Source: a virus (lineage: Duplodnaviria; Caudoviricetes). From it: a stretch of DNA of 57,508 bases. This document shows, piece by piece, positions 551 through 50,124 of the stretch (position 1 is its first letter; each line of letters opens with the position of its first letter). Location of the stretch: the IMG/VR virus record IMGVR_UViG_3300020034_000016, positions 1-57,508 of that record; one strand, 5' to 3'. The notes under the pieces are model-generated. The model was given only the letters and a program-made list of their open reading frames with translations, ran no database searches and had not been told where the DNA came from. The position numbers were made by a program, and so were the translations under genes.

Positions 551-1143
551 TGGCAACAATCAACGAAATACTGGATGAAACGGAAGATAATATCCGGTCA
601 AAGAATTTGCCGGGAACCATCACCCGCGTCAATGATGCGAACCTTCGCGATAAGGTTACCATGGAGCTGCGAGATCGCGGCATTCTTCGCCTACCCAGTA
701 CTGCTGAGTTATTAACTGCTTCCAAAGATAATACGAAAATAGTGCTGGTGATCAGCAAAGGCTTGTTTGTCATCACTAGCACACCCGACTCTGCTGACAA
801 TATCACCACATTCGCCTCAGCTAATGCCGGTTGGTTATGGGTACTCATCTGCGATTTTCAGGCAAGCGGCTTAAAAGATCAGTTTGCGATCGCAGAGGAT
901 GATAGTTATACAATTGAGGCCGGGTTCATGATCGATAAAATATTGATCAAACCGGTGGGCATTATCACTGCGAAGGTAGGCTTAACCAATGGTGGGGAAG
1001 AGATTATGGAGGCGAATGTACTACCGGCTAATAAATGGTATTCGATCAACCGTGATATCATGACCACCAACACAGATATCAATATCTATTTCACTGGCAT
1101 CACGGCCGGCACGACCGTGATCATATACAAACGAATTATATGA
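550..1143 (+). CDS. Hypothetical virion/tail-associated protein
   Basis: 197-aa ORF translationally coupled to both neighbours. Confidence 0.6.
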   Translation: MATINEILDETEDNIRSKNLPGTITRVNDANLRDKVTMELRDRGILRLPSTAELLTASKDNTKIVLVISKGLFVITSTPDSADNITTFASANAGWLWVLICDFQASGLKDQFAIAEDDSYTIEAGFMIDKILIKPVGIITAKVGLTNGGEEIMEANVLPANKWYSINRDIMTTNTDINIYFTGITAGTTVIIYKRII

Positions 1144-7837: not shown

Positions 7838-8562
7838 AAAACGGTATCATCATGGGCGTGATGGCCTGCAGCATCGCGGTACTCCTGTTCCTGCTGATCA
7901 AATGGAATTGCACCAAGTCCAGCCCGGACATAGTCGCAGTTGTCGATAGCGTTCAATACTATCGCAACAAATTAAACCAAGAGGTAGCGGCCATTAAGCA
8001 GCGGGAACAGGATTACTATAAGGCGCCGCCTGGCTACCTCGATAGCATTGCGAAACTTCATAATACAGTCACCAATCTGCTCCAGGAAGTCGAAGCGCTC
8101 CGTTTAAGAGGCTCGGTGAAGCTTGCCACAGGTAGCCACCCAGAGATTATTTACCGTTATAAGGGATCTCCCGTGATTGATACCATGCCGGGCGGCCATG
8201 ATCCAGGTGACTCCGCAATATCTGTTACGCAAACATTCTCCAATCCTTACTATTCCGCTGTGGCTAACATATCGCTTCATGGCGATTCATCTTATTTATG
8301 GATCGAAAGTTATGATACCCTCAGGGTGGTGGCAAAGTTGGTAAAGGAAGGACATCTGTTTAATCGACAGACATACCTGCAGGTAGATGCTGTCAACACG
8401 AATCCTTACAACAGAATTCAAGGCCTATCGGTCTATCGAAAGCCGTTGCCAAAGCCCAAGAAAATCGGAATTGGTATTCAGGTAGGATACGGGTTTTCAA
8501 ATTCACTCACTCCCTCAATTTATGTAGGCGTGGGAATATCCTATAATATTCTTCGATTATGA
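7834..8562 (+). CDS. Membrane-anchored lysis accessory protein (unimolecular spanin-like)
   Basis: N-terminal TM, coiled coil, and a C-terminal amphipathic beta-hairpin (IGIGIQVGYG...YVGVGISYNIL). Confidence 0.55.
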   Translation: MKNGIIMGVMACSIAVLLFLLIKWNCTKSSPDIVAVVDSVQYYRNKLNQEVAAIKQREQDYYKAPPGYLDSIAKLHNTVTNLLQEVEALRLRGSVKLATGSHPEIIYRYKGSPVIDTMPGGHDPGDSAISVTQTFSNPYYSAVANISLHGDSSYLWIESYDTLRVVAKLVKEGHLFNRQTYLQVDAVNTNPYNRIQGLSVYRKPLPKPKKIGIGIQVGYGFSNSLTPSIYVGVGISYNILRL

Positions 8563-9281
8563 CATACCCCGATATTTTATTAAAACAAGCTTCCTCGAAT
8601 GCGCCTTACGTGCGCGTATTGAAGGAGAAGCTAAACGAACAGGGCTTTGGTCCACTCGATGTCAACAACCCTAATTTCGGCGAGAGCACGGAAGCGGCTG
8701 TGATCGCTTTCCAGCGTGCGAAGCTTCTGAATCCTGATGGCGAAGTAGGTCCCTTAACATGGCACCGGCTTTTCACTGATCGTATCGCAGTCATTGCTCA
8801 GTCCACAACTTTGAACGGCCGGTCGCTTGAGATATTATTGACGCAGCTTTATGTCCGGGAGAAAACAGGGCACAATGATGGTAAGGAAGTCGAAGCCTAT
8901 CTGAATTCAGTTGGGCTCAACGCCGGGTATGCCTGGTGCGTAGCATGTCAATATTGGGCGGTGGCCAACGGAGCGGCTGAATTGTCAGTTTATAATCCAT
9001 TGCCAAGGACCGGCGGCGTACATGATATGTGGCACAGATTACCGCCTACCCTTAAAGTAACTGATCCGCAAAAAGGAGATTTGATGTTTCTCGACTTCGG
9101 CCATGGCACAGGCCACCTGACACGTATTAAAAAGCGCGAGGGAATAAACCTAGCCACGATCGAGGGGAATACATTTGCGGACCCTACCTCGGCGATCCAG
9201 GATAGAGACGGCCAGGGTATGTTCGAACGCCTAAGGAAAACAACGATGAAACAGATCATAGGTTATGCCAGAATTCCATAA
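8559..9281 (+). CDS. Endolysin: peptidoglycan-binding domain plus CHAP domain
   Basis: PG-binding motif (FGESTEAAVIAFQRAKLLNPDGEVGPLTW); CHAP motifs AWCVAC, GH, TIEGNT. Confidence 0.88.
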   Translation: MTYPDILLKQASSNAPYVRVLKEKLNEQGFGPLDVNNPNFGESTEAAVIAFQRAKLLNPDGEVGPLTWHRLFTDRIAVIAQSTTLNGRSLEILLTQLYVREKTGHNDGKEVEAYLNSVGLNAGYAWCVACQYWAVANGAAELSVYNPLPRTGGVHDMWHRLPPTLKVTDPQKGDLMFLDFGHGTGHLTRIKKREGINLATIEGNTFADPTSAIQDRDGQGMFERLRKTTMKQIIGYARIP

Positions 9282-11907: not shown

Positions 11908-11950
11908 CGTTGATTGCCTTCACCATATCGAATTCGCAAGACTCATATCC

Positions 11951-11977
11951 AAAGCTGGAGGTTACCCTCCGGCTTTT
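11951..11977 (+). terminator. Rho-independent terminator
   Basis: AAAGCTGGAGG-TTAC-CCTCCGGCTTTT. Confidence 0.65.
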
Positions 11978-12066
11978 CTATTTCAAGTAGTTACACATTT
12001 AATTGGGCAAGTCGAAGAATTTGTACTAAAATTGCTAAAGGAATTAGTACTAAAATCATCCGGTTT

Positions 12067-12855
12067 ATGTGTTACTACAATGGCATGCGGGTTACCAGGG
12101 ATCAGTTCATCCGCCTCATAGGTATCGAGCGGGAGCTGAAAGGCATGAACCTGGTGCGTCCTGTCGCCAACGGGTTTGATTACCGAAGCTGGCCGATCGT
12201 CCGCCCAACAGCGGATCGCAAAAGTTTTACTGTGAAGGAGGCGCATTGGGAATTTATCCCTGAATACATCGAGGACGATATACAATTAAAAGAAGCCCGA
12301 AAGCATCAGACCTGGCTGAACGCCAAAGGAGAGAATCTTTGGGTCAACGAGAAGGGGAAACTTTCTATGTGGTCAGAGGCTGCGGAGGCTCGGCGTTGTC
12401 TTGTACTCAGCTCTCATTTTTTTGAATTCAGGCATGTTCCAGTTATCGGTAATAAGGGGCAGCCACTCAAGAAAACTGAGTCGATCCCTTATTGCATTAC
12501 TCTGCGCGACAGGCCGGAGTATTTCTTTATGGCCGGTATCTGGCGGACCTGGACGAATCATGCGAGAGGTCAATCGGCAGATACATTCGCGATCGTAACT
12601 GCACCGGCTAACGAATTCATGGCGGAGATCCACAATACCAAAAAACGTATGCCAGTGATCATGGATGAAGACCAGGCGGCAGCATGGCTAAAGCATGGTC
12701 AGTCCCGGAAAATAATTACAGAGCTGGCCACTACGCCCTACGATCCCGCGAAGATGATCGCCTGGACAGTGGCCAAAGATTTCAAGAACAAGGAAAACCC
12801 GGAGGAGCCCTTTCATTACTCACACGTAGCACCGATCGAATATGCACCAAACTAA
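12067..12855 (+). CDS. SOS response-associated peptidase (SRAP/HMCES/YedK family, abasic-site binding)
   Basis: Start at ATG12067 gives MCYYNG (catalytic Cys2); motifs NAKGE, RRCLV, FFEF, MAGIW, IHNTKKRMPVI. Confidence 0.9.
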   Translation: MCYYNGMRVTRDQFIRLIGIERELKGMNLVRPVANGFDYRSWPIVRPTADRKSFTVKEAHWEFIPEYIEDDIQLKEARKHQTWLNAKGENLWVNEKGKLSMWSEAAEARRCLVLSSHFFEFRHVPVIGNKGQPLKKTESIPYCITLRDRPEYFFMAGIWRTWTNHARGQSADTFAIVTAPANEFMAEIHNTKKRMPVIMDEDQAAAWLKHGQSRKIITELATTPYDPAKMIAWTVAKDFKNKENPEEPFHYSHVAPIEYAPN

Positions 12856-18220: not shown

Positions 18221-19447
18221 TCAGACAAAAGGATTGGAGACTTTCCGCAGGCGCTCCTGTTGACGTTCATTTTCCCCTTGCGCATAGTTCATAGTAATCA
18301 CTGTGCTGGTATGAGCCGCCATCCGGGCTGCTTCCTGGATGTTTAACGCCTTGGCCGTCTCGTCGAGGTTACTATACTTAAGGCTATAAAAATCTACATC
18401 GATTTCGAGTCCACCTTCTGCTTTTGGGCCCTTCACATACTTGTTCCACATCCGGGTAATTCGGTTGGCCTGGATGGGCTTAGGCCCGGGTTTCAGGTTC
18501 CTACTAAATACAAAATCATCCGGGCCGCAGTTGCCCGTAACAATCACATCTATCCAGTATCGTAATGCGATATCTTTGATTGGGCGCCTTACTTCTCTTT
18601 GCTGGCCACCCTTTTTGATCAAACACTTGAACCGTTGCTTGGCCAGATCTACGTTTCCTCCTTTCAATCGAAAGAGCTCTTTGGACCTCGATCCGGAGTG
18701 AAAGAATATGTGCATATATCGCCAGAGATTAGGATGAAATTCTTTAAGATGATCATTAATAATTAGCCGCTCTTCCCGGGTGAGTTCTCGACGAATTTTA
18801 CGTATTCTTTTTTTCTTGCGGATGGAAGACACCGGATCCAGTTCGACGCACTCTAGTTCGATCAACTGTTTATAGATCATCATTAAATTAGACCGGTAGA
18901 CATTGAATGTATTGTCGGTCCAACGCGGCTTGTTAATGGCGCACCAATCCAGCAGCATCTTAATGTGGCGGCGGCGGATCTCGGACACTGGCTTCCTGTC
19001 CAGGCGCAACTGTACTGCAGCCTTCTCAATATGAGTAACGATATTTTTGGCGTCCCGCTTTGTTTCTGGCTCGCAAGTCATAAGCCTCACTGCTTCATAA
19101 AATGCTCGGATCATCGGGGTAGATGGATCGATTACATAATCGATATTGTCCAGTGCTCCCGTCTCATTGGACTCATCGCTGATACATCCGGTGATCGGAT
19201 TATACGCACGATTCTTCAGCATGTGTAGCTCCTGATCTAGTAGCTCCTGGGTAGCTTCGCGCCGTCCCAATAGTTCAGAGATGTGGTTCATCCCTTTAAC
19301 GATTTGAAGTTTGGGCTTTGCTACCGTGGGATCATAAAACCGGTAATGAATGTACCAGGTGATTGAGGTGGATGCCTCCTGTCTTTTCCAATTCTTTGGA
19401 TGCACAGAAAGTTTGCTGCAGGAGCAGCCATTTGGTAAGAGTAGCAT
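18221..19447 (-). CDS. int: Tyrosine integrase
   Basis: HSGSRSKEL (R), IKKG (K), FYSLK, AAHTS (H), MNY (Y); adjacent to attP. Confidence 0.9.
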   Translation of the reverse strand: MLLLPNGCSCSKLSVHPKNWKRQEASTSITWYIHYRFYDPTVAKPKLQIVKGMNHISELLGRREATQELLDQELHMLKNRAYNPITGCISDESNETGALDNIDYVIDPSTPMIRAFYEAVRLMTCEPETKRDAKNIVTHIEKAAVQLRLDRKPVSEIRRRHIKMLLDWCAINKPRWTDNTFNVYRSNLMMIYKQLIELECVELDPVSSIRKKKRIRKIRRELTREERLIINDHLKEFHPNLWRYMHIFFHSGSRSKELFRLKGGNVDLAKQRFKCLIKKGGQQREVRRPIKDIALRYWIDVIVTGNCGPDDFVFSRNLKPGPKPIQANRITRMWNKYVKGPKAEGGLEIDVDFYSLKYSNLDETAKALNIQEAARMAAHTSTVITMNYAQGENERQQERLRKVSNPFV

Positions 19448-26814: not shown

Positions 26815-27450
26815 ATGGCAAAATCAAAAGTGAAAGACCTGACGCCAGAACAGGAATTTGAGACTGAATTACAAAAGGATGAGCGGAAGGTCATCATCAC
26901 ATCTGCGACTATCAAGGACCTGCATTGCAATTACGATTATGTTCCCATGGTAGGACCTCAGCGTCTGACACCACTTGGCGCCAAGGGTCCCGGTATCATT
27001 GATGACGACTTATCTGAAGCCATGGCCAGGCTCAAGGCTCACCTGGCTTACATCGATGGTGCTTTTGCCGGAAAACGTGTTAGTGATATCGACAAATTTC
27101 ATGAGCATGAGATCACCGAAAATTACCACGTCGACAGTATCAAAATGAAAGGATCGGATGGCGATCGACGAATCTCCATCATCGGCAGCAAACATTTGGA
27201 AGCCGGCGGAAGGATGAAGTGTGAAACTCCTCCCTATCTGATAGAAGACCACTCTGGATATAAGTTCTACAATGAACTAAAATCGGAGGTCGATTTCATC
27301 TTCCATGAAGTGGAATTGTATATGGAAGGAAAATACACCATGCCAGTTACCGACGACGATGAGCCGGAAGATCCAAAGCAAACCAAGATTCAATTTGAGC
27401 AGCCATTGGATGACTCTCATACTAACGATTCCGAGAACTCGCCGTTCTGA
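26815..27450 (+). CDS. Hypothetical protein with acidic SSB-like C-terminal tail
   Basis: Ends DDSHTNDSENSPF. Confidence 0.65.
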   Translation: MAKSKVKDLTPEQEFETELQKDERKVIITSATIKDLHCNYDYVPMVGPQRLTPLGAKGPGIIDDDLSEAMARLKAHLAYIDGAFAGKRVSDIDKFHEHEITENYHVDSIKMKGSDGDRRISIIGSKHLEAGGRMKCETPPYLIEDHSGYKFYNELKSEVDFIFHEVELYMEGKYTMPVTDDDEPEDPKQTKIQFEQPLDDSHTNDSENSPF

Positions 27451-28628
27451 TGCCATTTGAACCACGATATTACCAAGCTGATGCCGTTGCTGCCAATCTG
27501 GAGTTTTTCGGAAGCAAGAAGATCTACAACGGTATTGACATCTGCCCTACCGGGTCCCGGAAGAGCTTGATTATAGCACTCACGGCCAAGGAGCTTTCGG
27601 GAAATACCATCGTCTTTCAACCATCGAAGGAGATCCTGGCGCAGAACTTTGAGAAGATTCTTTCTTATGGATATCGCGCATCCATCTATTCGGCCTCCGG
27701 TGGCATGAAGCATGTCGACAAGCTGACGTTTGCTACGATCGGTTCGGTTTACAAAAAGCCCCAGTTGTTTGGCAAGTTTAAAAACATCATCATCGATGAG
27801 TGCCACCTGGTCAATCCTGAAGAAGGCATGTATAGCAAGTTCCTGAAGGATCTTGGTAGCGCGAAGGTCCTGGGCTTAACAGCCACGCCGTACCGTCTTT
27901 CTCCTGCCTCCGGCGGTGCTATGCTGAAGTTCATTACCCGAACGACACCCCGGGTCTTTAATCAGGTCCTGTACAAAATTCAGAACGATACGCTCTTCAA
28001 TGAGGGCCACCTGGCGCCACTTCAGTATTTCGATATGCAAATGATCGATCGCGCAAAACTGGAGATGAACAAAGCCGGCACTGATTTCACCGAGGAAAGC
28101 ATCCGGGCGCAATACAAGGCGGTAGGAATGATCCAGCAGATGATCAACGTAGGCAACCGGATCCTAGCGAAGCGAAAGAATCTTCTAATCTTCTGTTCGC
28201 TCATCACTGAAGCGAATACCATAGCGGCTGGGATCGCGGGAGCGGTCGTGGTCACCGGTAAGACACCGCCGGAAGAGCGTCAGCGAATTCTTTCCAATTA
28301 CAAGAAGGGGCTCATCCGTTGCGTGATCAATGTAGGTGTACTGACGACTGGCTTCGATTACCCTGGTCTGGAGGCCGTGTTGATTGGAATATCCACCATG
28401 TCTCTTTCGCTGTTCTATCAGATCGCAGGCAGAGTCATGCGCCCTTTCACCTATCCTGATGGAACGAAGAAGACTGGATGGGTAGTGGACATGGGTGGCA
28501 ATCTCAATGTATTCGGAAAGATAGAGACCATGCAGATCGAGAGGGATAACAAAGGCCACTACTTTATTTCAAATGTCGTCAACGGCGCATGGCGCCCATT
28601 AACTAACGTAATCTTTTCAAAAAACTAA
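27450..28628 (+). CDS. SF2 DEAD/DEAH-box helicase (RadD/YejH-like)
   Basis: PRYYQ, PTGSRKS (variant Walker A), DECH, GLTATP, LTTGFD, QIAGRVMR. Confidence 0.88.
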   Translation: MPFEPRYYQADAVAANLEFFGSKKIYNGIDICPTGSRKSLIIALTAKELSGNTIVFQPSKEILAQNFEKILSYGYRASIYSASGGMKHVDKLTFATIGSVYKKPQLFGKFKNIIIDECHLVNPEEGMYSKFLKDLGSAKVLGLTATPYRLSPASGGAMLKFITRTTPRVFNQVLYKIQNDTLFNEGHLAPLQYFDMQMIDRAKLEMNKAGTDFTEESIRAQYKAVGMIQQMINVGNRILAKRKNLLIFCSLITEANTIAAGIAGAVVVTGKTPPEERQRILSNYKKGLIRCVINVGVLTTGFDYPGLEAVLIGISTMSLSLFYQIAGRVMRPFTYPDGTKKTGWVVDMGGNLNVFGKIETMQIERDNKGHYFISNVVNGAWRPLTNVIFSKN

Positions 28629-28630
28629 AT

Positions 28631-29128
28631 ATGGAACCAGTACCAGTACAACTATCAAAAAACGACATCATCGCTATCTACCAGGAATCAACCCCTGCAG
28701 GCAAGGAAAAGCTGGAGGAAAAATTCGGCCGAAAAACCTTCAATCGAAATATCAACATAGCGGATCGAATATGGACTGTCGACGATGCCTGCGTGGAAAC
28801 CGGCCGTCCGATAGAAGAGGTCAGGCCCTTTGCTAATCCCTCTAACGCCTTCCAGGATTGGCTGAATGCCTGCGGTGAGATGGCAGTGTTGATAGAGGCA
28901 TTCAACGAAGGAAAGGTTCCTGACTGGGCTGACCCCAAACAGAAAAAATATATAGCCTGGTGGGATATGCGCCCTGAATCCGGCTTCGGGCTGTCGTTTC
29001 GCGATGTCGACTTCGTTAACTCGCGTACGTGCGTCGCGTCCCGCCTTCATCTTTTAAAAGAAGATCATCACAAACTCATCGCTGAACGTTTCCCGGATAT
29101 CTGCAAACGCTATATGACCAAGCGCTAA
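28631..29128 (+). CDS. DGR target protein 1
   Basis: Contains VR1, encoding SGFGLSFRDVDFVNSRTCVASRL. Confidence 0.88.
   Translation: MEPVPVQLSKNDIIAIYQESTPAGKEKLEEKFGRKTFNRNINIADRIWTVDDACVETGRPIEEVRPFANPSNAFQDWLNACGEMAVLIEAFNEGKVPDWADPKQKKYIAWWDMRPESGFGLSFRDVDFVNSRTCVASRLHLLKEDHHKLIAERFPDICKRYMTKR
28979..29047 (+). repeat. DGR variable repeat VR1
   Basis: 69-bp ungapped match to the TR; 13 mismatches, 12 at TR adenines and one synonymous C>T. Confidence 0.93.
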
Positions 29129-29160
29129 ACAATCATTTCATCATTATCAAAATACACACA

Positions 29161-29565
29161 ATGTTTAATTACAAAACTATCACCAGCTATGAGGCGGCCT
29201 GTGCCGACCAGGAACGCGATCCTTTGGCTGAACCTGATTACTCCAAGTGTGGACTGGCACCTGCGCAGGAGCAGTATCACCGGTCGTCCTTCCGGTGGGA
29301 TATTATCCGCACTTCAGTGAATAAGGACAAAGAAGGCAATTTGTGGAAGCCCACACCAACAGAGCGCAGGTACTATTTCTGGGCCTGGATAAACCCTGAT
29401 GCTAACAAGCGTTCCGGCTTCGGGCTGTCGTTCGTCGATGTCAACTTCGATGACTCGATTTCGGGCGTCGCGTCCCGCCTTCAATTTCGGGACGAGCCCC
29501 GAACCAAGTTCATGTTCGACACATTCCCGGATCTCTGTGAGGATATTTATATCCCGCAGGAATGA
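29161..29565 (+). CDS. DGR target protein 2 (distant paralog of target 1)
   Basis: Contains VR2, encoding SGFGLSFVDVNFDDSISGVASRL. Confidence 0.88.
   Translation: MFNYKTITSYEAACADQERDPLAEPDYSKCGLAPAQEQYHRSSFRWDIIRTSVNKDKEGNLWKPTPTERRYYFWAWINPDANKRSGFGLSFVDVNFDDSISGVASRLQFRDEPRTKFMFDTFPDLCEDIYIPQE
29413..29481 (+). repeat. DGR variable repeat VR2
   Basis: 69-bp ungapped match to the TR; 11 mismatches, all at TR adenines. Confidence 0.94.
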
Positions 29566-29602
29566 CCGATAACAGGCTGTGCACTGTCAAAAGCGTGACT
29601 CT

Positions 29603-29671
29603 TCCGGCTTCAGGCTGTCGTTCAACGATGTCAACTACGATAACTCGAATACGAACGTCGCGTCCCGACTA
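29603..29671 (+). repeat. DGR template repeat (TR)
   Basis: TCCGGCTTCAGGCTGTCGTTCAACGATGTCAACTACGATAACTCGAATACGAACGTCGCGTCCCGACTA; five AAY codons; lies between the targets and the RT. Confidence 0.94.
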
Positions 29672-29774
29672 TGCGAATCTCACGATAGTGCAGGCCTTGC
29701 CCACATGGCAAAAAATGATTCATCTAATTGGGGCTGTGGTACCGAAAGGGAAGCAGACCCATGAAAGCAAAGGC
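29672..29774 (+). ncRNA. Structured 3' spacer of the DGR template RNA
   Basis: Hairpins TTGCC-CACAT-GGCAA and CC-GAAA-GG (GNRA loop) between the TR and the RT start. Confidence 0.5.
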
Positions 29775-31001
29775 ATGAAACGAAAAGGTAATTTATTCGC
29801 TCAAGTTTGCACCCTGGAGAACCTCCAGCAAGCGGACGCCATTGCGCGGATCGGGAAGAAGCACCGATCCGATATACGGGCCTTTGACAGGAACCGAGAT
29901 GAAAACCTGCTGGAGCTGCGCGACATGCTTTTGTACAACGAATATTCTACGTCTCCCTATACTCTGAAAACAATCAGGGACCCTAAAGAGCGGATTATAT
30001 GCAAGCTCCCCTACTACCCGGACGGAATCGTTCATCATGCGATCATGATTCCGCTGGAGCAGATCCTGGTGTCTTCCTTTACCACGAACTCGTATGCTTC
30101 CATCAAGGGGAAAGGTGTTAAGGCCTTTTGCGATGACCTGGAGAGAGCCCTGCGCGATCAAGCCGGAACGCAGTACTGTCTGAAGATCGATGTAAAGAAG
30201 TTTTATCAGAACATCGACCACACGATCCTGAAATTCAAGCTGCGTCGAAAAATCAAGGACCCGGATCTTTTGGGGCTGATAGACGAGATCATTGACAGTG
30301 CTCCCGGCTTACCGATCGGTAACCATCTCAGCGGCTTCTTTGCGAATCTATACCTGAATGGCCTTGATCATTTTCTAAAAGAAGTCGTCGGCGTCCAATA
30401 CTACTTCCGGTATATGGATGATATCATTATCCCGGCTGCCACCAAGCCGCAGCTCCATCAGCTGCGCGTCATCATCCAAGAATACCTGGCCACCCATCTA
30501 AAACTGGAACTGAAATCGAACTACCAGGTATTCCCAGTGTCCAATGGAATTGACGTTGTGGGCTACGTTTTCTACCATACCCACCGGCGCCTTCGCAAGC
30601 GAACCAAGAAGCGTTTTGCCCGCAGTGTTGCCCGCAACCCCAATTCCAGATCCATTCCCTCCTATTACGGTTTGGCAAAGCACGCGAACTGCAACCATCT
30701 CTTAAAAAAACTGCTATATGACAACAACAAGTTTCAAGGATTTAAACATAAAGGCAAAGACAAAAGGCTTTGTCGGACCAAAGATCGAAATGGAAGATAT
30801 AATGGGCAAGGAGATCGAAGTGCTGGATTTCAAGATCGGGCCATCCAAATTCCCGGAGAAATACGAGATATGCCTCAGCCTCCAGATAAAATTCGAAGAC
30901 TTACTGAGAGTTGCCTTCTCTTCCTCGAAGGTATTGGCAGAGATGATTCAGCAGGTTCCGAAAGAAAAATTTCCAGTCAAAACAACAATCGTGAGGCGTA
31001 A
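29775..31001 (+). CDS. DGR reverse transcriptase
   Basis: Start MKRKGNLF; motifs PKERII, YCLKIDVKKFY, GLPIGNHLS, YFRYMDD, GIDVVGY; adjacent TR and VRs. Confidence 0.95.
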   Translation: MKRKGNLFAQVCTLENLQQADAIARIGKKHRSDIRAFDRNRDENLLELRDMLLYNEYSTSPYTLKTIRDPKERIICKLPYYPDGIVHHAIMIPLEQILVSSFTTNSYASIKGKGVKAFCDDLERALRDQAGTQYCLKIDVKKFYQNIDHTILKFKLRRKIKDPDLLGLIDEIIDSAPGLPIGNHLSGFFANLYLNGLDHFLKEVVGVQYYFRYMDDIIIPAATKPQLHQLRVIIQEYLATHLKLELKSNYQVFPVSNGIDVVGYVFYHTHRRLRKRTKKRFARSVARNPNSRSIPSYYGLAKHANCNHLLKKLLYDNNKFQGFKHKGKDKRLCRTKDRNGRYNGQGDRSAGFQDRAIQIPGEIRDMPQPPDKIRRLTESCLLFLEGIGRDDSAGSERKISSQNNNREA

Positions 31002-31029
31002 GGAAACTAAGCGCCATGAATTCACTTAA
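30718..31029 (+). CDS. Small protein overlapping the RT 3' end, candidate DGR accessory factor
   Basis: 103-aa beta-rich ORF starting where the RT core ends; not the helical Avd pattern. Confidence 0.7.
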   Translation: MTTTSFKDLNIKAKTKGFVGPKIEMEDIMGKEIEVLDFKIGPSKFPEKYEICLSLQIKFEDLLRVAFSSSKVLAEMIQQVPKEKFPVKTTIVRRKETKRHEFT

Positions 31030-31321: not shown

Positions 31322-31690
31322 ATGACAGCGCCACAAAAAGCACTCATTATTAAACTGCTCTCGGGATGCTATCTCAAGAAGAGCACACTGAGCACTGGCG
31401 CTAAGAGCTATCGGTTATACGATGGGCGGGGTAATGTACTCTTACGTCTGCACGCTCGAACGGTGGACTCGATCGACCGGTTCATCGATCCGAAGATCAA
31501 GATCTGGAAGCACACCCCGGATGGGAGGATTACGCTGAACCTCTGGATGGTTCGTCGCCTGCATGGAAAATGCCTGATCAAGAGAATGTACAAGACAAGG
31601 GAAGCGCTGCAGGATCCCTTCAATATTTATAAACCAAGAAAGAAAACATCAAAACCTCAGTCGAATGAAAAAGTTCAGTATCTCTTCTGA
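31322..31690 (+). CDS. Hypothetical basic protein
   Basis: 122-aa ORF. Confidence 0.6.
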   Translation: MTAPQKALIIKLLSGCYLKKSTLSTGAKSYRLYDGRGNVLLRLHARTVDSIDRFIDPKIKIWKHTPDGRITLNLWMVRRLHGKCLIKRMYKTREALQDPFNIYKPRKKTSKPQSNEKVQYLF

Positions 31691-32753
31691 CCAGGTAAAG
31701 AAGGCTTTTAAGAAGCTCTCCCTGGCTATAATTGCGAATCCCATTTTGCCTGCCTTGTCCAATGTATTGGTACGGGTGACCAAAGGACAGGTGGAGTTCA
31801 TCACATCTAATAATGATCTCACCATCAGCGAAAAGTGCGAGGCGAATGCGGCCGAGGAGTTTGATCTGCTTCTTCCCTTTGAGGACGTTTATAAGTATGT
31901 CGGCCTGTTGAAATCGGTCACCATGGTCATCGAGCACCCTTCGGCACGTAAAGCACGGTTCAGTGGGGATAATGACGTTTATGAATTTAACAGCCTGGTG
32001 AAGGTAGAGGACTTCGCCAAGATACCCTCCGTACCGAAAGGGAATGCCTTACACCTGGATGAATCCTTTGTAGGGTGGCTATCGAAGGCAATGGAAACGA
32101 CCAGCAAGAAGGAGGACGACAAGGCCCTCACGCGGGCCTGCCTCGATATCACGCCGAAGGGTATCTTCCTGGTCAGTACCGATTCGTATTTTCTCTTCAA
32201 AAGAAAGTTGGAAGGCGAGTCAAAGATTGCTGATCAGCTGCACTTCTCTCATCGACTGGCGGCTGCGCTGCAGGGATCAAAGGAACTCGAGGTGTCCTGG
32301 TCAAAGAATATGCTCTGCTTCCAAAGCGGCACAACGACCATATGGGCTAAGAGGTATGAAGATAAATATCCCAACTACAATTCGATCCTGCCGGATTATG
32401 AATCAAATCTGGTGCTCGATCGCGCAGCGTTTATGCATGCGCTCGATAAAATGTGTCTCTCCAGCCTGGCCACCAGACAAACCACGTTCAGCCTGAAGGA
32501 AACGGTGGGCAGTATTCAGTTGGTGACGGACGACCCGGACTACCAGCGCAAGCTCAAGGCTACGGTTCAGGGTGCCTATGAAGGACCTGTGGCTGTAATC
32601 TCTCTCAATGCAAAGCGGCTGCTCACGATCATGCACCAGGTAGACCATGATACTATCCGTCTTCACATTCACGATAAGACGAAGGCCGTCCTGGTATCCA
32701 CGGAGGAGGATCCTGCTTACATCGGTCTCATCATGCCACTTAAACTCGATTAA
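31665..32753 (+). CDS. dnaN: DNA polymerase III beta sliding clamp homolog
   Basis: 362 aa; PILPALSNVL, VSTDS, KYPNY, C-terminal GLIMPLKL. Confidence 0.85.
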   Translation: MKKFSISSDQVKKAFKKLSLAIIANPILPALSNVLVRVTKGQVEFITSNNDLTISEKCEANAAEEFDLLLPFEDVYKYVGLLKSVTMVIEHPSARKARFSGDNDVYEFNSLVKVEDFAKIPSVPKGNALHLDESFVGWLSKAMETTSKKEDDKALTRACLDITPKGIFLVSTDSYFLFKRKLEGESKIADQLHFSHRLAAALQGSKELEVSWSKNMLCFQSGTTTIWAKRYEDKYPNYNSILPDYESNLVLDRAAFMHALDKMCLSSLATRQTTFSLKETVGSIQLVTDDPDYQRKLKATVQGAYEGPVAVISLNAKRLLTIMHQVDHDTIRLHIHDKTKAVLVSTEEDPAYIGLIMPLKLD

Positions 32754-34285: not shown

Positions 34286-35506
34286 ATGCCCAAAACTAAG
34301 TCCCGAAGAACTTCACGATCGCCTCGGCCGCGTGTTGATCAAAGAAATAAACCGGCCGATGATGGACGCACGCGACGCGAGGGAAGCGATCCGCATTCTT
34401 CCGCCGTCATCAGCAATTCCGTTTTTGCCTTAACCCTCAAGGACAAGTCCTGGGGTAACCTGGCCGATACTATGTTAACAGAGGAAAAAGATAGTGAGGA
34501 GCTAGTGATGTACAAGGATCTGCTCGATTGCTATAACGTAGGTGCCGAGCTTTTGAAGATATCCCGGTCTTCGTTCACCAAAAGACCGGATACCGCCTCG
34601 GCAATATCAGAGATACTAAAGGCATTCAAAGAAAATATCTGCCCGAAGGGATTTGATTTGAATATCGATGAGCATTATAATAGTAAAAGGAAAAGGGTAG
34701 GCTATCATTTCACGATGTTTAAGGAATGCCAGTGTGGTAGTTGGTGGCATTTTTTTGAGATCAAGCCAATCGTAGAAGATTTACTCACCAGCAATCCACG
34801 GCTGCATGACCTGTTTATTGTCTTCCTCCGCTCGTTCATTTATCACTGTCATATTCCCAGCTGGTTCGACGGCTCGATGGATGCACATTACATCAATGGG
34901 AACTATGTGTATGAATTACGTCAGGTACTTAACAATCCCGAGCGACTGGATTCAGAGACATTGGAACGCGTACCCCTTGAGCAGGCGAAACAAAGACTGG
35001 CTGATCTGGAGACTACGATCGCTGAATACGAAACTGGAGTAGCCTGGCAATACCAGCAACAGATCATGAATGCGAAGAAGAAGACGCCAAAAGAATTGCT
35101 CCGGTTGTTAAAGAAATTTCCCGGGCAATCCAAGCTAGTTCAATTTATGAAGAAGGCCTGTGAAGTAATGACGATACCTGTGGGGGTTGCCGACTTCTGC
35201 TACCATATGGGAGATGGCGAGGAGTATGAAGGTCTCCGCTATGATCAGCAAGTAACCATTATCTGGGATTGGCAGGACCACCTTTTAGGTACCCAGGCAA
35301 ATATTATTGATGATATGGCCAGGGGCTGTGAAGTGTTCTTCCCCACTCTTTGTGCCCGCATTATGCCGGGCACAAAGAGTGGCCTTGATCTGAAAAGATT
35401 CGCAGCCTGTGTAGACTGGCCACAGAGGCTGACAGAGATCACCCGGCTCTATCAAAATATTACTTCCCGATTTAATAATTACGATAAAGGACGAAACCTA
35501 TTATGA
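34286..35506 (+). CDS. PRTRC cassette protein in the position of protein F
   Basis: 406-aa ORF between the Ubl and E2 genes; assignment by synteny only. Confidence 0.5.
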   Translation: MPKTKSRRTSRSPRPRVDQRNKPADDGRTRREGSDPHSSAVISNSVFALTLKDKSWGNLADTMLTEEKDSEELVMYKDLLDCYNVGAELLKISRSSFTKRPDTASAISEILKAFKENICPKGFDLNIDEHYNSKRKRVGYHFTMFKECQCGSWWHFFEIKPIVEDLLTSNPRLHDLFIVFLRSFIYHCHIPSWFDGSMDAHYINGNYVYELRQVLNNPERLDSETLERVPLEQAKQRLADLETTIAEYETGVAWQYQQQIMNAKKKTPKELLRLLKKFPGQSKLVQFMKKACEVMTIPVGVADFCYHMGDGEEYEGLRYDQQVTIIWDWQDHLLGTQANIIDDMARGCEVFFPTLCARIMPGTKSGLDLKRFAACVDWPQRLTEITRLYQNITSRFNNYDKGRNLL

Positions 35507-36234
35507 ACGAACGCACCGAACTACTCGAGAAGAAATTTAAGCCCCGGCTAGCCATAATGGTTTACAAATCTGAACAGACGATGGGTCATCCAGATCATTA
35601 TCATCTGGAAAGTCACCAAATAAATGAAGCTGGTCAGATCCTGGAAGGAAAGCCTTTACTGCACGAAACGATTGCCGGCATGGTATCGATATTCCACGAT
35701 CAGAATCGCGATCGCTCGATCCTCTGCGGGGCGATTCCAGACAACCTCCTCTTTTACCGGCCCAACCCCGGAACACAATACAATCTAGCCTGGTACCGGC
35801 CAGCAGAGCTTCGCTACCACCACTTCGCTGATCAGCTCAGGATAAAGTCCGGAAGGATTTGGACACCGCCCCTCCTCTACCTGGTGGAGAACGGCGAACT
35901 GTACGTATTTGCCATGAAGAAGGATGATCGGCCTACGGAGAAAACCAAACTTTTCCGGTCACCTTATCACAACGTATCGGAGAACGGCAAGGTCTGTCTT
36001 GGAAATGCCAAAGTCCGCAAGCCTATTGATAAAAATTTCATCAGCACGATCAAATACTGGGAGGACTTGTTTTGGTTGAGCGAGTTCTCGCATCTCAATG
36101 GCGCTACGACGCCAACGAAGTCCGAGCTGAAGGACATCTACACGAAACTGGTGAACAGTAAGGAGAAGGTAAAGTGGTCAGACCTGCAGGAATTAAAAGA
36201 ATCAAAACGCCTCATCAAAAATATCATTCAATGA
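35503..36234 (+). CDS. PRTRC protein B (prokaryotic E2, family D)
   Basis: AWYRPA, PPLLY, LFRSPYHNVSENGKVCLG (catalytic Cys), WEDLFWLSEFSH. Confidence 0.9.
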   Translation: MNERTELLEKKFKPRLAIMVYKSEQTMGHPDHYHLESHQINEAGQILEGKPLLHETIAGMVSIFHDQNRDRSILCGAIPDNLLFYRPNPGTQYNLAWYRPAELRYHHFADQLRIKSGRIWTPPLLYLVENGELYVFAMKKDDRPTEKTKLFRSPYHNVSENGKVCLGNAKVRKPIDKNFISTIKYWEDLFWLSEFSHLNGATTPTKSELKDIYTKLVNSKEKVKWSDLQELKESKRLIKNIIQ

Positions 36235-36995
36235 AAGTCCACGTAGCGCATCCGTACCTGCGAAATCCACCACATAAAATAACGGTCGCCGTCGCCGGGA
36301 TCGGTGGCACCGGCAGCCAGGTCCTAACAGGCCTCGGCCGAATCAATGAAGCCCTGCTCTCCATGGGTCACCCGGGTTTGCATGTTCGAGCCTACGATAA
36401 TGATCAGGTGACATCGGCCAATATAGGCCGGCAGCTTTTCAGCACTTCCGATCTCGGGCATAATAAGGCCGTAGTCCTTACCACACGTATCAACCGATTC
36501 TACGGTCTGGAGTGGGAAGCTGTCCCTGAAATCTTCGGCGGACAATGCAATTCAAATATCACCATCTCCTGTATCGATACCGCTATGGGTCGGGTAATGA
36601 TGGGGATGAAGCTCGAGAGTGTCCGTAAGACTCGTCGCGACGATCCTGAGCAACGGTTGTATTGGATGGATCTCGGCAACCTGCAGAAGACAGGACAGGT
36701 CATTCTCGGTACGCTGGTGCCCGTTGAACAACCCAAGGGTGTAAAGAATACCAGGGCGAATCTCAAGACAGTGACTTCTATGTTTCCCCAACTCAAAACC
36801 ATTCAGGAAGATAAGTTGGGGCCCAGCTGCTCACTTGCGGAAGCACTGAATAAACAGGATCTATTCATCAATTCAACGCTTGCGCAGTTTGGCTGCGGTC
36901 TGATCTGGAAATTATTCCGGGAAGGATCTATCCGTTACCATGGCTGCTACTTAAACCTCGATTCTTTCATCGTAAACCCCATCAAAATAAAATGA
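36231..36995 (+). CDS. PRTRC ThiF-family E1-like activating enzyme
   Basis: GIGGTGS, NIGRQLF, ISCID, YWMDLGN, PSCSLAEALNKQDLFIN. Confidence 0.92.
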   Translation: MKVHVAHPYLRNPPHKITVAVAGIGGTGSQVLTGLGRINEALLSMGHPGLHVRAYDNDQVTSANIGRQLFSTSDLGHNKAVVLTTRINRFYGLEWEAVPEIFGGQCNSNITISCIDTAMGRVMMGMKLESVRKTRRDDPEQRLYWMDLGNLQKTGQVILGTLVPVEQPKGVKNTRANLKTVTSMFPQLKTIQEDKLGPSCSLAEALNKQDLFINSTLAQFGCGLIWKLFREGSIRYHGCYLNLDSFIVNPIKIK

Positions 36996-46495: not shown

Positions 46496-47989
46496 ATGGA
46501 CGTGACACAAGAGAAGCCCCTCCTCCACTCCCGGGTCATCAAAACAGCACCAGCCAATTGGCGGAATTTCCATTTTATTCAACAAGAAGACTTCAAGGAA
46601 TTGGCACCGGATGCGCATGCAAAGCTCAAAGCATCGATCCTCGGTAATCAGTTCACCCAGCCATTCTATGTGTGGGAAATCAACGAAAACCCCAACCCCG
46701 CGAAATACAAAAGCAAAGAACGGGTGAAGGTGCAGTATTGTCTCGATGGGAAGCATCGGATCAAGATACTCGAGGAATTGATCCAAGAGGGATATGACGT
46801 ACCTGAAAAATTGTCGGCCACATTCATCAAATGCAGGAATAAGAAGGAGGCCGCAAGGCTTGTGCTGATCTATTCCTCGATGTATGCCAAGATCACCCAG
46901 ACCGGTCTTCATGACTTCCTGGAGAGCTATGAATTAGCCTTTAATGATCTGATTAATGAGATGGATCTTCCTGGCTTCTCGACGGTCCGGTTTGAGCAGT
47001 CGTATGACATTCACAAGATCATCGATGAGGAGGAGTACCTCGTTGAGGTCCCGGAAGTGGCCAGTGTAATCGTTCGGCCTGGCGATCTATTTCAGTTGGG
47101 TGATCACCGGTTGATCTGTGGCGACTTCCAGGATCCGCATATTCAAAACTCTTTGATGGGCAAAGAGAAGTGCCGGATAATTATCACTGACCCACCGTAC
47201 AACCTTCCAGCGAGTCTATACAGCCATCGGGTGGAGCACGAGAATTTCGCCATGGCAGCCGGCGAGATGAGCGATCTTGAGTTTGTCGCCTTCCTGGAGT
47301 CGATCATGCGTACCTCGGTATTGCATAGCATGCCTGGTGCGATCCATTACATATTCATGGACTGGCGCCATCACTGGCACATGGGAGAGGCTGGTCGCCG
47401 GGTGTACGGTAGCCCTATTCCGAAGCAACTATGCGTGTGGGTAAAGGATCGAATGGCCAACGGGTCCTTTTATCGATCCAAGCAGGAGCTTTGTTTTGTC
47501 TTTACCAACGCCGGTGATAAACATCTTTGGAATGAGGACCTCCTGGATCAGGGCGGCTTCTACAAAGACAATGATGAGCTCGTTTTCATCTTCAAGAATG
47601 GCGAGGGTGCAAAACATCTGTCTCACTTAGAACTGATCGACCGGATCCGGACAAACGTCTGGAATTATCCATCTGCCACGAGCGGAGGTAATCCCGATCG
47701 CCAGGAGCTGAACAATCATCCGACTCCGAAAACAGTCCGAATGATCGCCGACGCGATTCTAGACACATCGAATCCGGCAGATCTGGTTGGCGACTGGTTT
47801 GTGGGTAGCGGAACAACGATCATTGCTGCCGACAAAACCGGCCGCAGGTGCTATGCTTCGGAGCTGGAACCGCAGTATGTCCAGTCCACTATTCTGCGCT
47901 ACATCAAGTATTGCATGAAGAATGACATCCCGTGTAAGATTACCCATCACACCGGGAATCTGTCGCTTTCCGACTTCAACCCGTGTTAA
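46496..47989 (+). CDS. ParB-like N-terminus fused to an N6/N4 DNA methyltransferase
   Basis: LDGKHR; GDHRLICGD, TDPPY, NVW, HPTPK, DWFVGSGTT. Confidence 0.9.
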   Translation: MDVTQEKPLLHSRVIKTAPANWRNFHFIQQEDFKELAPDAHAKLKASILGNQFTQPFYVWEINENPNPAKYKSKERVKVQYCLDGKHRIKILEELIQEGYDVPEKLSATFIKCRNKKEAARLVLIYSSMYAKITQTGLHDFLESYELAFNDLINEMDLPGFSTVRFEQSYDIHKIIDEEEYLVEVPEVASVIVRPGDLFQLGDHRLICGDFQDPHIQNSLMGKEKCRIIITDPPYNLPASLYSHRVEHENFAMAAGEMSDLEFVAFLESIMRTSVLHSMPGAIHYIFMDWRHHWHMGEAGRRVYGSPIPKQLCVWVKDRMANGSFYRSKQELCFVFTNAGDKHLWNEDLLDQGGFYKDNDELVFIFKNGEGAKHLSHLELIDRIRTNVWNYPSATSGGNPDRQELNNHPTPKTVRMIADAILDTSNPADLVGDWFVGSGTTIIAADKTGRRCYASELEPQYVQSTILRYIKYCMKNDIPCKITHHTGNLSLSDFNPC

Positions 47990-48348: not shown

Positions 48349-48754
48349 CCTGGAGAAGGAGAAGCGCCTGCGAATGGTCCAGGAGTGGATACTGCAGGAT
48401 CACATCACCACGGATATCATATCCCAATGCATCAACAGCTGGGATATCAGCGAGCGCCAGGCCATGCGTTACCTGGCCAGTGCGAAAATAGCCTTCGCCA
48501 AGATCACCGAAAAGAAGCTCGAGCACCGGTTAAACTATCATATCCAGCGCCGGAATAAGCTCCTCCGGGACCTCGATCCGAAGTACCGTAAATCGCCTCC
48601 AGGTATCAAGGTCCAACTGGACGTTCTTGAGGACATCGCCAAGCTGGAGCAGCTGTATAAGCTCAAGATCGAAGTTGGCGGACCTAAAGGTGCAGCAGCG
48701 ATCCAGACGGACAGTACACACAAGGTCATCTTTGAAAACTATGCAGCGAAGTAA
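48326..48754 (+). CDS. terS: Terminase small subunit (putative)
   Basis: HTH-like region WDISERQAMRYL; directly upstream of and coupled to terL. Confidence 0.65.
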   Translation: MRKPKSGDLEKEKRLRMVQEWILQDHITTDIISQCINSWDISERQAMRYLASAKIAFAKITEKKLEHRLNYHIQRRNKLLRDLDPKYRKSPPGIKVQLDVLEDIAKLEQLYKLKIEVGGPKGAAAIQTDSTHKVIFENYAAK

Positions 48755-50124
48755 TGCTGACCAACGCCTCCTTTCATTTCAACCATAAATACCAGCAGGT
48801 CTTCACCACAAAGGCGCGCTATATCCTCCTTTGGGGTGGCCGGGCGAGAGGCGGCTCCCACTTTGGCACCGATTACTTCCTTTATAAGATGACGCAGCCG
48901 GAGTACTTCCGCGGCGCCCTGATGCGCAGTATCTACGGTGATATCAAGGGCTCTCTGTGGCAGGACTGGAAGGATCGACTGGAGAGTTCCAGCTTCGACG
49001 ATTCTGAGTTCGACATCAATGAGCGCATGACGGCCACATACAAGAAGACCGGCAATGGCTTCCTCGCAAAGGGTTTCAAGAAGTCTTCGAGTAAACAGTC
49101 CGCGAAGTTGAAGTCGCTTGCGGGGATGACTCACATCCTGATTGAGGAAACGGAGGAAACCGAAGAAGATGATTTCGATAAGTTGGATGATAGTGTCCGG
49201 ACAAACAAGATCGAGGATATTCAAATTATGATGCTCTTCAATCAACCTGGCAAGAATCACTGGCTGATGAAAAGATTTTTTAATTTGATACCCTGGGACC
49301 CCAAGGAACATGGTGATTACAATCCTGATGCTGAGGGCTATTACATTGCCGTTCCGAAAGATAATCCTGATGTTTTGATTATCCATACCACCTACCTGGA
49401 CAATATCAAGAACCTGAATCCTAAGACGATCTCCAAGTACATCAATTACGGAAATCCAGACTCCCCGTTTTACAACCCGGAGAAGTATTATACTGATGTG
49501 CTGGGATTGGTAGCGGAGGGTGTGCGTGGTAGGATTTATAAGAAATTCAGACCGATAAGTCTGGAGTTCTTCAAGGCTCTTCCATATGAATCTTTCTACG
49601 GACTTGACTTTGGTTATTCGGATGACCCGGTAGCATTAGTCGAATTGAAAAATCACAACAATAGGAATTTTTGGAGGGAGAGGATCTATGAGTCAGGGTT
49701 GACCAATCCGGCACTTTCGGAAAAGATGACGGCCCAGGGCATCAGTAAGAAGTCAATCATCTATGCGGATAATGCTGAGCCAAAGAGTATACAGGAGCTG
49801 AGGGACCTAGGATGGAATGTCAAAGAAGCTGACAAAGGAACCGATTCGGTGAACTTTGGCATTAAACAGCTCATCAGCATGGACAATTATTATACCGATG
49901 AATCCAAGAATATTGAAATGGAGCTGCAGGAGTATAAATGGCACCTGGACGCCAACAAGGAACCAACTGACACACCAGTGGACAAAAAGAATCACGCGAT
50001 GGATGGCGGTAGGTATGGGATCACCACACACAAACAGCTGAAGCGGCGCAAGAAGTTCGTGACCTCTAATGGTGAAGTAGCCAGCGATGTACCGGCCAGG
50101 ATCAACCCGCTGGATTGGGCATAG
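48754..50124 (+). CDS. terL: Terminase large subunit (PBSX-like)
   Basis: WGGRARGGS, KLKSL, IEE, FNQP, TTYLDN, YGLDFG, ADNAEPKSI, DKKNHAMDG. Confidence 0.93.
   Translation: MLTNASFHFNHKYQQVFTTKARYILLWGGRARGGSHFGTDYFLYKMTQPEYFRGALMRSIYGDIKGSLWQDWKDRLESSSFDDSEFDINERMTATYKKTGNGFLAKGFKKSSSKQSAKLKSLAGMTHILIEETEETEEDDFDKLDDSVRTNKIEDIQIMMLFNQPGKNHWLMKRFFNLIPWDPKEHGDYNPDAEGYYIAVPKDNPDVLIIHTTYLDNIKNLNPKTISKYINYGNPDSPFYNPEKYYTDVLGLVAEGVRGRIYKKFRPISLEFFKALPYESFYGLDFGYSDDPVALVELKNHNNRNFWRERIYESGLTNPALSEKMTAQGISKKSIIYADNAEPKSIQELRDLGWNVKEADKGTDSVNFGIKQLISMDNYYTDESKNIEMELQEYKWHLDANKEPTDTPVDKKNHAMDGGRYGITTHKQLKRRKKFVTSNGEVASDVPARINPLDWA

Follow-up and report, generated by a model that had tools for sequence, protein, structure and literature searches.

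Which proteins does a diversity-generating retroelement (DGR) placed among phage replication genes diversify, and are they parts of the virion or proteins that act inside the host cell? The question is raised by positions 28631-31029 of the IMG/VR virus record IMGVR_UViG_3300020034_000016, a linear tailed-phage record of 57,508 nt, estimated to be 80% complete, which was analysed over its whole length (the window). An earlier note, made from the DNA letters alone, had read this interval as a DGR with two small non-structural targets between a helicase gene (27450-28628) and a sliding clamp gene (31665-32753). The DGR and its position both hold. The interval contains the parts of the DGR and also encloses a conserved gene, g103, which the note had left undiscussed:

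28631..29128, plus strand: target 1 (T1), 165 aa, long form of the target family, starting 2 nt after the helicase stop codon
28979-29049, plus strand: variable repeat 1 (VR1), encoding T1 residues 117-140, with 25 codons after it
29161..29565, plus strand: target 2 (T2), 134 aa, short paralog without the first ~40 residues of T1
29413-29483, plus strand: variable repeat 2 (VR2), with 26 codons after it
29603-29673, plus strand: template repeat (TR), mutagenic part 29603-29667, 3′ end ...CGACTATG resembling IMH* (IMH, initiation of mutagenic homing)
29775..30717, plus strand: DGR reverse transcriptase (RT), ~314 aa by homology, frame open to 31001, with a YMDD motif
30718..31029, plus strand: g103, conserved basic 103-aa protein, isoelectric point (pI) 9.4, modelled as a beta-barrel like the oligonucleotide/oligosaccharide-binding (OB) fold, candidate accessory factor

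A repeat search of the window yields a single direct-repeat family with three 71-nt copies (28979-29049, 29413-29483 and 29603-29673), of which the last was taken as the template. Compared base by base with the TR up to position 29671, VR1 has 13 mismatches, 12 of them at TR adenines, and VR2 has 11, all at adenines, which reproduces the counts of the earlier note; the sole non-adenine mismatch is C29623, replaced by T in VR1. Within the mutagenic part, 65 nt with 15 adenines, TR adenines account for 10 of the 11 mismatches in VR1 and for all 9 in VR2, or 19 of 20 when pooled (binomial P = 1.2e-11 given 15/65). The two VRs carry the same replacement at three sites only (29612, 29637 and 29655) and their substitutions mostly differ; therefore each was rewritten separately, as had been proposed. 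Both end in ...CGCCTTCA where the TR has ...CGACTATG, a putative IMH/IMH*-like pair already pointed out in the note, and in the aligned TR regions of relatives the differences between TR and VR 3′ ends are fixed at the same place. The region is thus, with as much certainty as sequence allows, a DGR.

The three repeats could also be explained by ordinary paralogy or gene conversion, involving a pair of duplicated genes and a fragment of a pseudogene that have no connection with the RT. T1 and T2 are indeed paralogs, and the TR copy itself lies in frame within a short open reading frame (ORF, 29579-29764). However, the concentration of 19 of 20 differences on the adenines of one copy effectively refutes this explanation, the same adenine pattern recurs in viral and genome loci (though the scan that found them required a 3:1 bias), and the template copy always stands beside a DGR-type RT, enclosed by a covarying RNA stem. 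We consider paralogy alone virtually untenable.

VR1 and VR2 are both in frame 0 within their target ORFs. The TR contains four AAC codons and one AAT codon, and no stop codon can be reached from its 10 adenine-bearing codons. The 15 adenines allow 4^15 = 1.07e9 DNA variants, in agreement with the ~10^9 estimated before, and the 10 codons allow 5.8e8 protein variants. The ~27 codons that the note placed after each VR are right when counted from the end of the mutagenised part, but not from the end of homology, where the numbers are 25 and 26. By analogy with the phage BPP-1 model, and given the adenine-specific pattern, the RT would copy a transcript spanning the TR and a structured spacer, with random bases incorporated opposite TR adenines, and the cDNA would replace the homologous 65-70 nt in the adjacent paralogs T1 and T2. 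As a result, 10 codons would be rewritten in a long loop between helices of a small scaffold, probably with the basic OB-like g103 as a helper in place of Avd. Contigs from two runs of a single soil sample, at ~5x depth, contain no variant letters, contigs being sequences that drop rare variants; in one of the two runs no identical contig covers part of the VR2 region, a gap that is uninformative. Short inverted repeats follow both VRs in the window (5 bp after VR1, 6 bp after VR2). A post-VR hairpin as a feature of the family was dropped, the stem lengths across 131 VRs being those of shuffled sequences.

To place the element among its relatives, we collected viral loci, the best 80 of 193 RT relatives in IMG/VR (49-59% identity), and genome loci, the best 80 of at least 436 RT relatives from 600 candidate stretches, each prokaryote species being represented by a single genome. 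Two or more short VRs are present in 55 of the 80 viral and 68 of the 80 genome loci. Specifically, 51 viral loci hold two VRs, 4 hold three, 15 hold one and 10 hold none, those with one or none including contigs cut upstream. The common layout comprises a 150-165-aa target, a 120-138-aa target, the TR, a structured spacer RNA, the RT and a basic OB-like protein of ~100 aa, with 21-30 codons after each VR and the TR 90-134 nt upstream of the RT. Consistent with this layout, the target ORFs of the genome loci (n = 151) have a median length of 139 aa, and the median number of codons that follow the VR is 24. The classic type is represented by nine loci, in which the TR measures 112-117 nt. One of them (L060) is truncated upstream; in the other eight the VR lies at most 7 codons from the end of its ORF, and these ORFs reach 1012 aa. 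Mismatches at adenines against others total 1696 versus 25 in the viral loci (120 VRs) and 2163 versus 46 in the genome loci, totals that are not an independent test of adenine bias because the adenine-aware repeat scan required a 3:1 ratio.

Some genome loci have three or four VRs (for example L123, L103 and L094, the last with a VR 2.6 kb upstream of its RT), so target number appears to expand and contract among relatives. VRs are identical within four sets of loci (L008/L010, L009/L011, L040/L043/L044 and L074/L076/L077), which are probably the same sequences and therefore uninformative. Between L014 and L022, with RTs 96% identical, 23 of 25 VR differences fall at TR adenines; the flanks differ too, which makes this weak support. 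The hosts of the best 80 genome loci bear Bacteroidota names in 76 cases, among them Chitinophagaceae, Flavobacterium, Prolixibacteraceae, Dyadobacter, Niastella and Epilithonimonas, and the other four are an Ignavibacteria metagenome-assembled genome (MAG), a 3.3-kb contig binned as Rhizobium and two further records. Cultured, non-pathogenic strains of Flavobacterium, Niastella, Dyadobacter and also Paraflavitalea are among the carriers, for example Flavobacterium suncheonense DSM 17707 (L122), F. denitrificans DSM 15936 (L157), Niastella caeni (L116) and Paraflavitalea speifideaquila BL16E (L087). The host of the window phage is probably a member of the Chitinophagaceae, because a 6.3-kb contig binned with a Chitinophagaceae MAG (L086) differs from the window by one base, has identical VRs and is probably the same sequence. 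Judging from these loci, the cassette is a conserved, portable unit found in many Bacteroidota phages.

RNA structure around the template is conserved as well. RNAalifold, applied to an alignment of 55 TR regions, together with a comparison with Rfam, places the following elements:

29575..29588, plus strand: 5′ stem arm, pairing with 29683-29695 and enclosing the TR
29683..29695, plus strand: 3′ stem arm
29697..29709, plus strand: hairpin TGCC/GGCA, then an invariant A-run
29693..29780, plus strand: TR-RT spacer RNA, resembling Rfam RT-17 (RF03020)

The enclosing stem is 12 bp long, with its arms just outside the TR. Nine of its 12 pairs show compensatory double changes, each in 6 to 26 of the 55 sequences, and one further pair does so in one sequence; all four hairpin pairs are kept in at least 52 of the 55. 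Both stem and hairpin are intact in the window. The window spacer matches RF03020 over the full model (1-95) at 22.7 bits (E 0.3), below the gathering score of 40.4, which 2 of 14 related loci pass (L074, 49.2 bits; L049, 46.5 bits). Unlike the window region, the RT-17 motif has no long-range stem enclosing the TR. Weinberg et al. 2017 (PMC5737381) locate the RT-10 motif in the TR-RT spacer of BPP-1 and raise the speculation that DGRs also use other RT motifs.

The RT belongs to the DGR family. It matches Pfam RVT_1 (2.8e-16) and phrog_1423 (4.2e-111 over residues 1-331), and a profile of 47 RTs aligns with BPP-1 bRT at an hhalign E of 3.8e-46 (31% identity, 307 columns). The YMDD motif is intact, as the note had stated, and the equivalents of bRT R74 and I181 are kept. 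Homologous RTs end at residue ~313-317, which is the point where g103 starts. A quick tree, used for branch length and rough clustering only, unites 56 rows (48 small-target loci and 8 without a VR; SH-aLRT support, from the Shimodaira-Hasegawa-like approximate likelihood ratio test, 92), while another 5 small-target loci form a separate group.

Several features of the RT weigh against a working element in the window. Of the 135 alignment columns with a conservation of 90% or more across 46 relatives, the protein departs from 21, and the next worst sequence from 11. Specifically, it has glycine in place of the 'PDR' arginine, which is invariant in bRT and in 46 of 46 relatives, and its IGxxxSQ motif reads IGNHLSG, with glycine in place of a glutamine that is 96% conserved and also present in bRT (residues 84 and 187 are the two atypical glycines). 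Furthermore, the usual stop codon is lost, so that ~94 extra codons (30718-31001) overlap g103 in another frame, an extension that contains stops in five relatives, and the RT branch is the longest in the clade save that of the reference phage Versailles (1.15 against a median of 0.27). Because the RT is atypical, present activity of this copy is uncertain.

These features would be expected of a relic, with an impaired RT, VRs that record past mutagenesis and frozen proteins, an explanation that fits any target function. Decayed copies occur elsewhere in the survey: in L017 (5168-5810), L024 (5617-5892) and L098 (5253-5895), non-adenine mismatches equal or exceed adenine ones (for example 6 versus 6 and 11 versus 27), and these look like decayed DGRs. 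In the window, however, the TR and VRs are otherwise clean, with 1 non-adenine difference in 130 compared positions, which argues against long inactivity; the catalytic YMDD, the R74 and I181 equivalents, the RNA stem and the hairpin are all intact; and the phage has no close relatives (best T1 homolog 52% identical), so the long branch may reflect sampling. We rate a relic as unlikely.

No Avd was found near the TR by Pfam matching of the neighbours (no match for any of them), and g103 aligns with BPP-1 Avd at an hhalign probability of 0.09, in line with the earlier note, which had set the element apart from BPP-1 with its Avd. Directly after the RT, a g103 homolog is encoded in 67 of the 80 viral loci and in 78 of the 80 genome loci; the viral homologs have a median length of 100 aa and a median pI of 8.9. 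The AlphaFold2 (AF2) model of g103, with a predicted local distance difference test score (pLDDT) of 92, is a beta-barrel with one helix, in the order strand-strand-strand-helix-strand-strand. Its best VIA-align match is the OB domain of RuvBL2 (Z 6.5, root-mean-square deviation (rmsd) 3.2, 69 residues aligned), followed by chains of single-stranded DNA-binding protein (SSB) and PriB at Z 4.3-5.6 (Rim1 SSB 5.6, Bartonella SSB 5.5). Six chains reach Z>=5 and none Z>=8, Foldseek returns nothing at E<=1e-3 for the same model, and the g103 profile finds nothing below E 0.5 among PDB sequences. A complex prediction from the RT and g103 alignments gave no answer (score 0.00, mark 0.32). On the strength of its charge, modelled fold and position, g103 probably stands in the place of Avd as a nucleic-acid-binding helper; against such a role, g103 has no match in PADLOC, Pfam or NCBIfam.

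The targets themselves form a family of small proteins. T2 is 42% identical to T1 over 62 residues (BLASTP E 8e-14) and is the counterpart of T1 residues ~41-165. An exhaustive HMMER search with T1, whose pI is 6.3, retrieves 799 clusters at E<=1e-3 and 112 at E<=1e-10, and most members are 150-165 or 120-138 aa long. The closest T1 homolog is 52% identical, and T1 weakly matches phrog_11581 (9.3e-6). By contrast with this breadth of homologs, annotation is scarce, a point that tells against any functional assignment: T1 and T2 have no match in Pfam, NCBIfam or PADLOC. No Pfam family recurs among 101 family members, which give no fibre, collagen, immunoglobulin (Ig) or C-type lectin (CLec)/lectin-type signal. 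A tblastn search of 50,697 phage records with T1 gave no match, and a word-based protein search found none beyond T1 itself. The 165- and 134-aa targets contain no hydrophobic segment, in agreement with the note, which saw no signal features in them: the highest 19-residue Kyte-Doolittle mean is 0.77 in T1, 0.71 in T2 and at most 1.42 over the 101 members.

Natural T1-T2 fusions occur in 11 of the best 150 homologs (247-353 aa, with two matched stretches each). One of them, P0013, was checked directly and has a T1-like half followed by a T2-like half, with a VR-like segment in each, and locus L013 has a 292-aa fusion ORF with both VRs beside its RT. The existence of such fusions suggests that the two proteins may work together. 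P0036 and P0050 are further fusions among the 11.

The AF2 model of T1 (mean pLDDT 87.7, predicted template modelling score 0.74) consists of helices up to residue 91, an irregular stretch at 92-143 that contains the VR, and two C-terminal helices. In the family alignment, mean entropy is 2.9 bits at adenine-bearing codons, 1.8 at other VR codons and 2.4 in the rest of the protein. Neither sequence nor model leads to a known fold. Foldseek finds no PDB row for the T1 model at E<=1e-3; VIA-align against 48,161 chains gives a best Z of 4.0, so that no chain attains Z>=5, the 50 matches listed include neither a lectin nor a DGR variable protein, and when 23 Foldseek rows were rechecked with VIA-align the best Z was 2.3. 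In BFVD the matches are uncharacterised phage proteins only, and in the ESM Atlas 'hypothetical protein' clusters only. The T1 profile finds nothing below E 0.5 among PDB sequences, and the target profile shows no similarity to Mtd (hhalign probability 0.13). The minimal CLec fold that the note had raised as a question thus finds no support in sequence or fold searches, which is not a refutation: a missing structural match does not prove a fold other than CLec. Indeed, because the VR loop (T1 residues 117-140) is modelled at low confidence (pLDDT 58-74), it may hold a very reduced CLec-like subdomain, which would count against a new fold. The N-terminal three-helix piece specific to T1 (28631-28750, residues 3-39) weakly matches F-box structures (Z 3.0-3.2, rmsd 2.4-2.9, 37-38 residues aligned), too weakly to interpret.

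What, then, do the targets do? With moderate confidence, we lean towards T1 and T2 being non-virion cytoplasmic binders, which would work together as a pair when the phage is in conflict with its host or with another phage (through anti-defence, host takeover or exclusion). Five observations favour this reading: the targets move with the cassette among temperate phages of Bacteroidota that are not related to one another; replication and recombination genes lie close beside them in the same orientation; they lack an export signal; they come as two or three paralogs, fused in some genomes; and they are unlike known receptor-binding modules. In the window, the plus-strand run 22291-43131 comprises an SbcC-like gene, RecT, a metallo-hydrolase, the helicase, T1, T2, the TR, the RT, g103, the clamp, a PRTRC-type E2/ThiF pair and a primase-helicase. 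These neighbours are mostly not shared outside the cassette (of the 80 viral loci, 1 has the helicase and 2 have the SbcC-like gene), and in L045 the cassette lies on the opposite side of the helicase. At least two kinds of phage backbone carry it, integrase/RecT phages such as the window and phages with a transposition protein. In 51 non-redundant loci, the nearest flanking ORFs, among the 25 commonest families, include DNA methyltransferases, ParB, HNH, RecT, Gam, NinB, a transposition protein, primase, nucleoside deoxyribosyltransferase and many unknowns. Of the larger flanking ORFs within ~6 kb, 131 of 142 were taken in; a transposition protein accounts for 7 of the 131, and methyltransferases are also common. 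The survey of 160 loci thus strengthens the non-structural reading of the earlier note, in that the targets travel with the RT across backbones and the flanks are mostly genes of DNA metabolism. An intracellular binder for anti-defence or host takeover, as the note had proposed, is plausible on these grounds, and its interpretation as a whole is partly supported.

Other observations on the flanks weigh against a cytoplasmic role. One nearest flanking ORF encodes a tail-completion protein, and the 131 large ORFs include 12 minor head proteins, 9 portals and 2 terminases. The cassette site is usually an accessory or early region, often bordering head genes, and it may reflect where insertions are tolerated; because the cassette often borders the structural module, its position alone is compatible with a virion role. 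T1 and T2 could accordingly be small virion adhesins or receptor-binding adaptors, in the manner of fibre-capping adhesins, diversified for tropism switching as in BPP-1 from genes outside the tail module. The phage DGR targets that have been studied by experiment are all receptor-binding proteins (PMC8144416, PMC10743442); the closest named RT relatives, crAss-like cr55_1 and Bacteroides phage Versailles, diversify large proteins beside tail genes; and head genes lie no more than 6 kb away in a good share of the related loci. On the other hand, targets that belong to a mobile cassette across phage backbones are hard to fit with one specific tail, those of the window lie within a replication operon, the 101 members give no fibre, collagen, Ig or CLec Pfam signal, and the window has separate classical tail enzymes. 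We judge virion adhesins improbable.

The cytoplasmic-binder reading has a bolder form, to which we attach a low probability. T1 and T2 might have a new scaffold, neither C-type lectin nor Ig, and form a two-chain binder with one randomised loop per chain, the whole being a plug-in with its own diversifier (RT, RNA and OB-fold helper) directed against variable intracellular defence proteins or rival phages. If this were true, the cassette would be a phage-borne, antibody-like adaptive system inside the cell.

Known DGRs share some of these traits and differ in others. The BPP-1 DGR (mtd-avd-TR-brt) has a homologous RT, a TR upstream of it with a structured spacer, adenine-specific TR/VR differences, IMH/IMH*-like 3′ ends and an AAC-rich template. 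Unlike the window, it has a TR of 134 nt by record annotation (~70 nt in the window), a single 381-aa tail protein as target where the window has two, of 165 and 134 aa, and a VR at the extreme C-terminus, whereas the window VRs are followed by 25-26 codons; it also has Avd, whereas none is detected in the window and g103 is unrelated to it. The BPP-1 target Mtd has a C-type lectin fold. The closest named RT relatives, cr55_1 and Versailles, have RTs 44-50% identical to that of the window and Bacteroidota hosts, and they resemble it in the order target-TR-RT, in having no annotated Avd and in a small ORF overlapping the RT end. In contrast to the window, each has one large target beside structural genes (572 aa, and 453 aa annotated 'tail protein', the latter in Bacteroides phage Versailles), and their post-RT ORFs have no detectable homology to g103.

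A non-structural DGR target alone is not new, because the Quimbyvirus DGR provides a precedent: according to the accessible sections of Benler et al. 2021 (PMC8008677), its second target is non-structural and lies in a defence-related island, and the authors propose a role in phage-host conflict for this CLec protein. As in the window, there are two targets, at least one of them away from structural genes among methyltransferases and nucleases; by contrast, both Quimbyvirus targets are C-type lectin proteins, one structural and one remote from the RT (same sections of PMC8008677). The window targets are small, adjacent and paralogous, lack a detectable CLec and lie within the cassette. Wu et al. 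2018 (PMC5758913), in the portion available, find a TR-RT core without avd in 29% of 372 DGRs (Architecture A, Lineage 3), two targets in 13% and internal VRs in a minority, all of which agree with the window. The same portion of PMC5758913 classifies VRs as CLec1-3, Ig1-2 and unknown classes from the candidate phyla radiation (CPR), and describes CH1, a small acidic protein of 160-169 aa conserved beside those Bacteroides DGRs that have no other accessories; it contains neither a small helical target family nor an OB-fold accessory. A relation of CH1 to T1 (165 aa, pI 6.3) is conceivable. The accessible DGR literature searched yielded no mention of the target family, the layout or an OB-fold DGR accessory, and the target lists of PMC5758913 and PMC8144416 may hold the family.

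DGR surveys, as far as their accessible text goes, place VRs at the C-terminus of a C-type lectin fold and describe phage targets as mainly tail proteins (PMC8144416; bioRxiv 10.1101/2024.11.15.621889). The cassette suggests a large clade, apparently not described before, that departs from several of these regularities at once: its small targets stand in tandem and have no detectable known fold, two conserved helices come after the VR, Avd is missing but an OB-like protein is conserved, and the site lies among early genes. If the scaffold is new, it would be a second natural way to display ~10^8-10^9 variants on a protein of 125-165 aa and would be of interest to engineers of binding proteins; if the targets are intracellular, DGRs would belong to the means by which phages counter defence or exclude one another. 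Because the cassette occurs in cultured strains, the question is directly testable.

The remaining annotated genes of the window are as follows:

1140-5387: GDSL-like 1415-aa protein, with a weak GDSL/SGNH match (28.8 bits, below cutoff)
5390-6676: polysaccharide lyase, 428 aa (PF14099, 1.4e-27)
8559-9281: endolysin
11914-12855: SRAP (SOS-response-associated peptidase) domain protein (PF02586, 4.5e-32), between the lysis genes and the integrase
18221-19447, minus strand: integrase
27450-28628, plus strand: helicase, directly 5′ of T1
31665-32753, plus strand: sliding clamp
35503-36995, plus strand: PRTRC pair (PRTRC_ThiF 233.9 bits, cutoff 144.75; PRTRC_B 121.1 bits, just under the cutoff of 131.45, the same gene matching Pfam Prok-E2_D at 1.6e-33)
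46496-47989: methyltransferase
48754-50124: terminase

The GDSL-like protein and the polysaccharide lyase are probably the tail-associated depolymerases; they are not targets of the DGR. These likely tail enzymes and the terminase lie ~19 kb or more from the cassette. The PRTRC pair is an E1/E2-like pair within the phage replication region.

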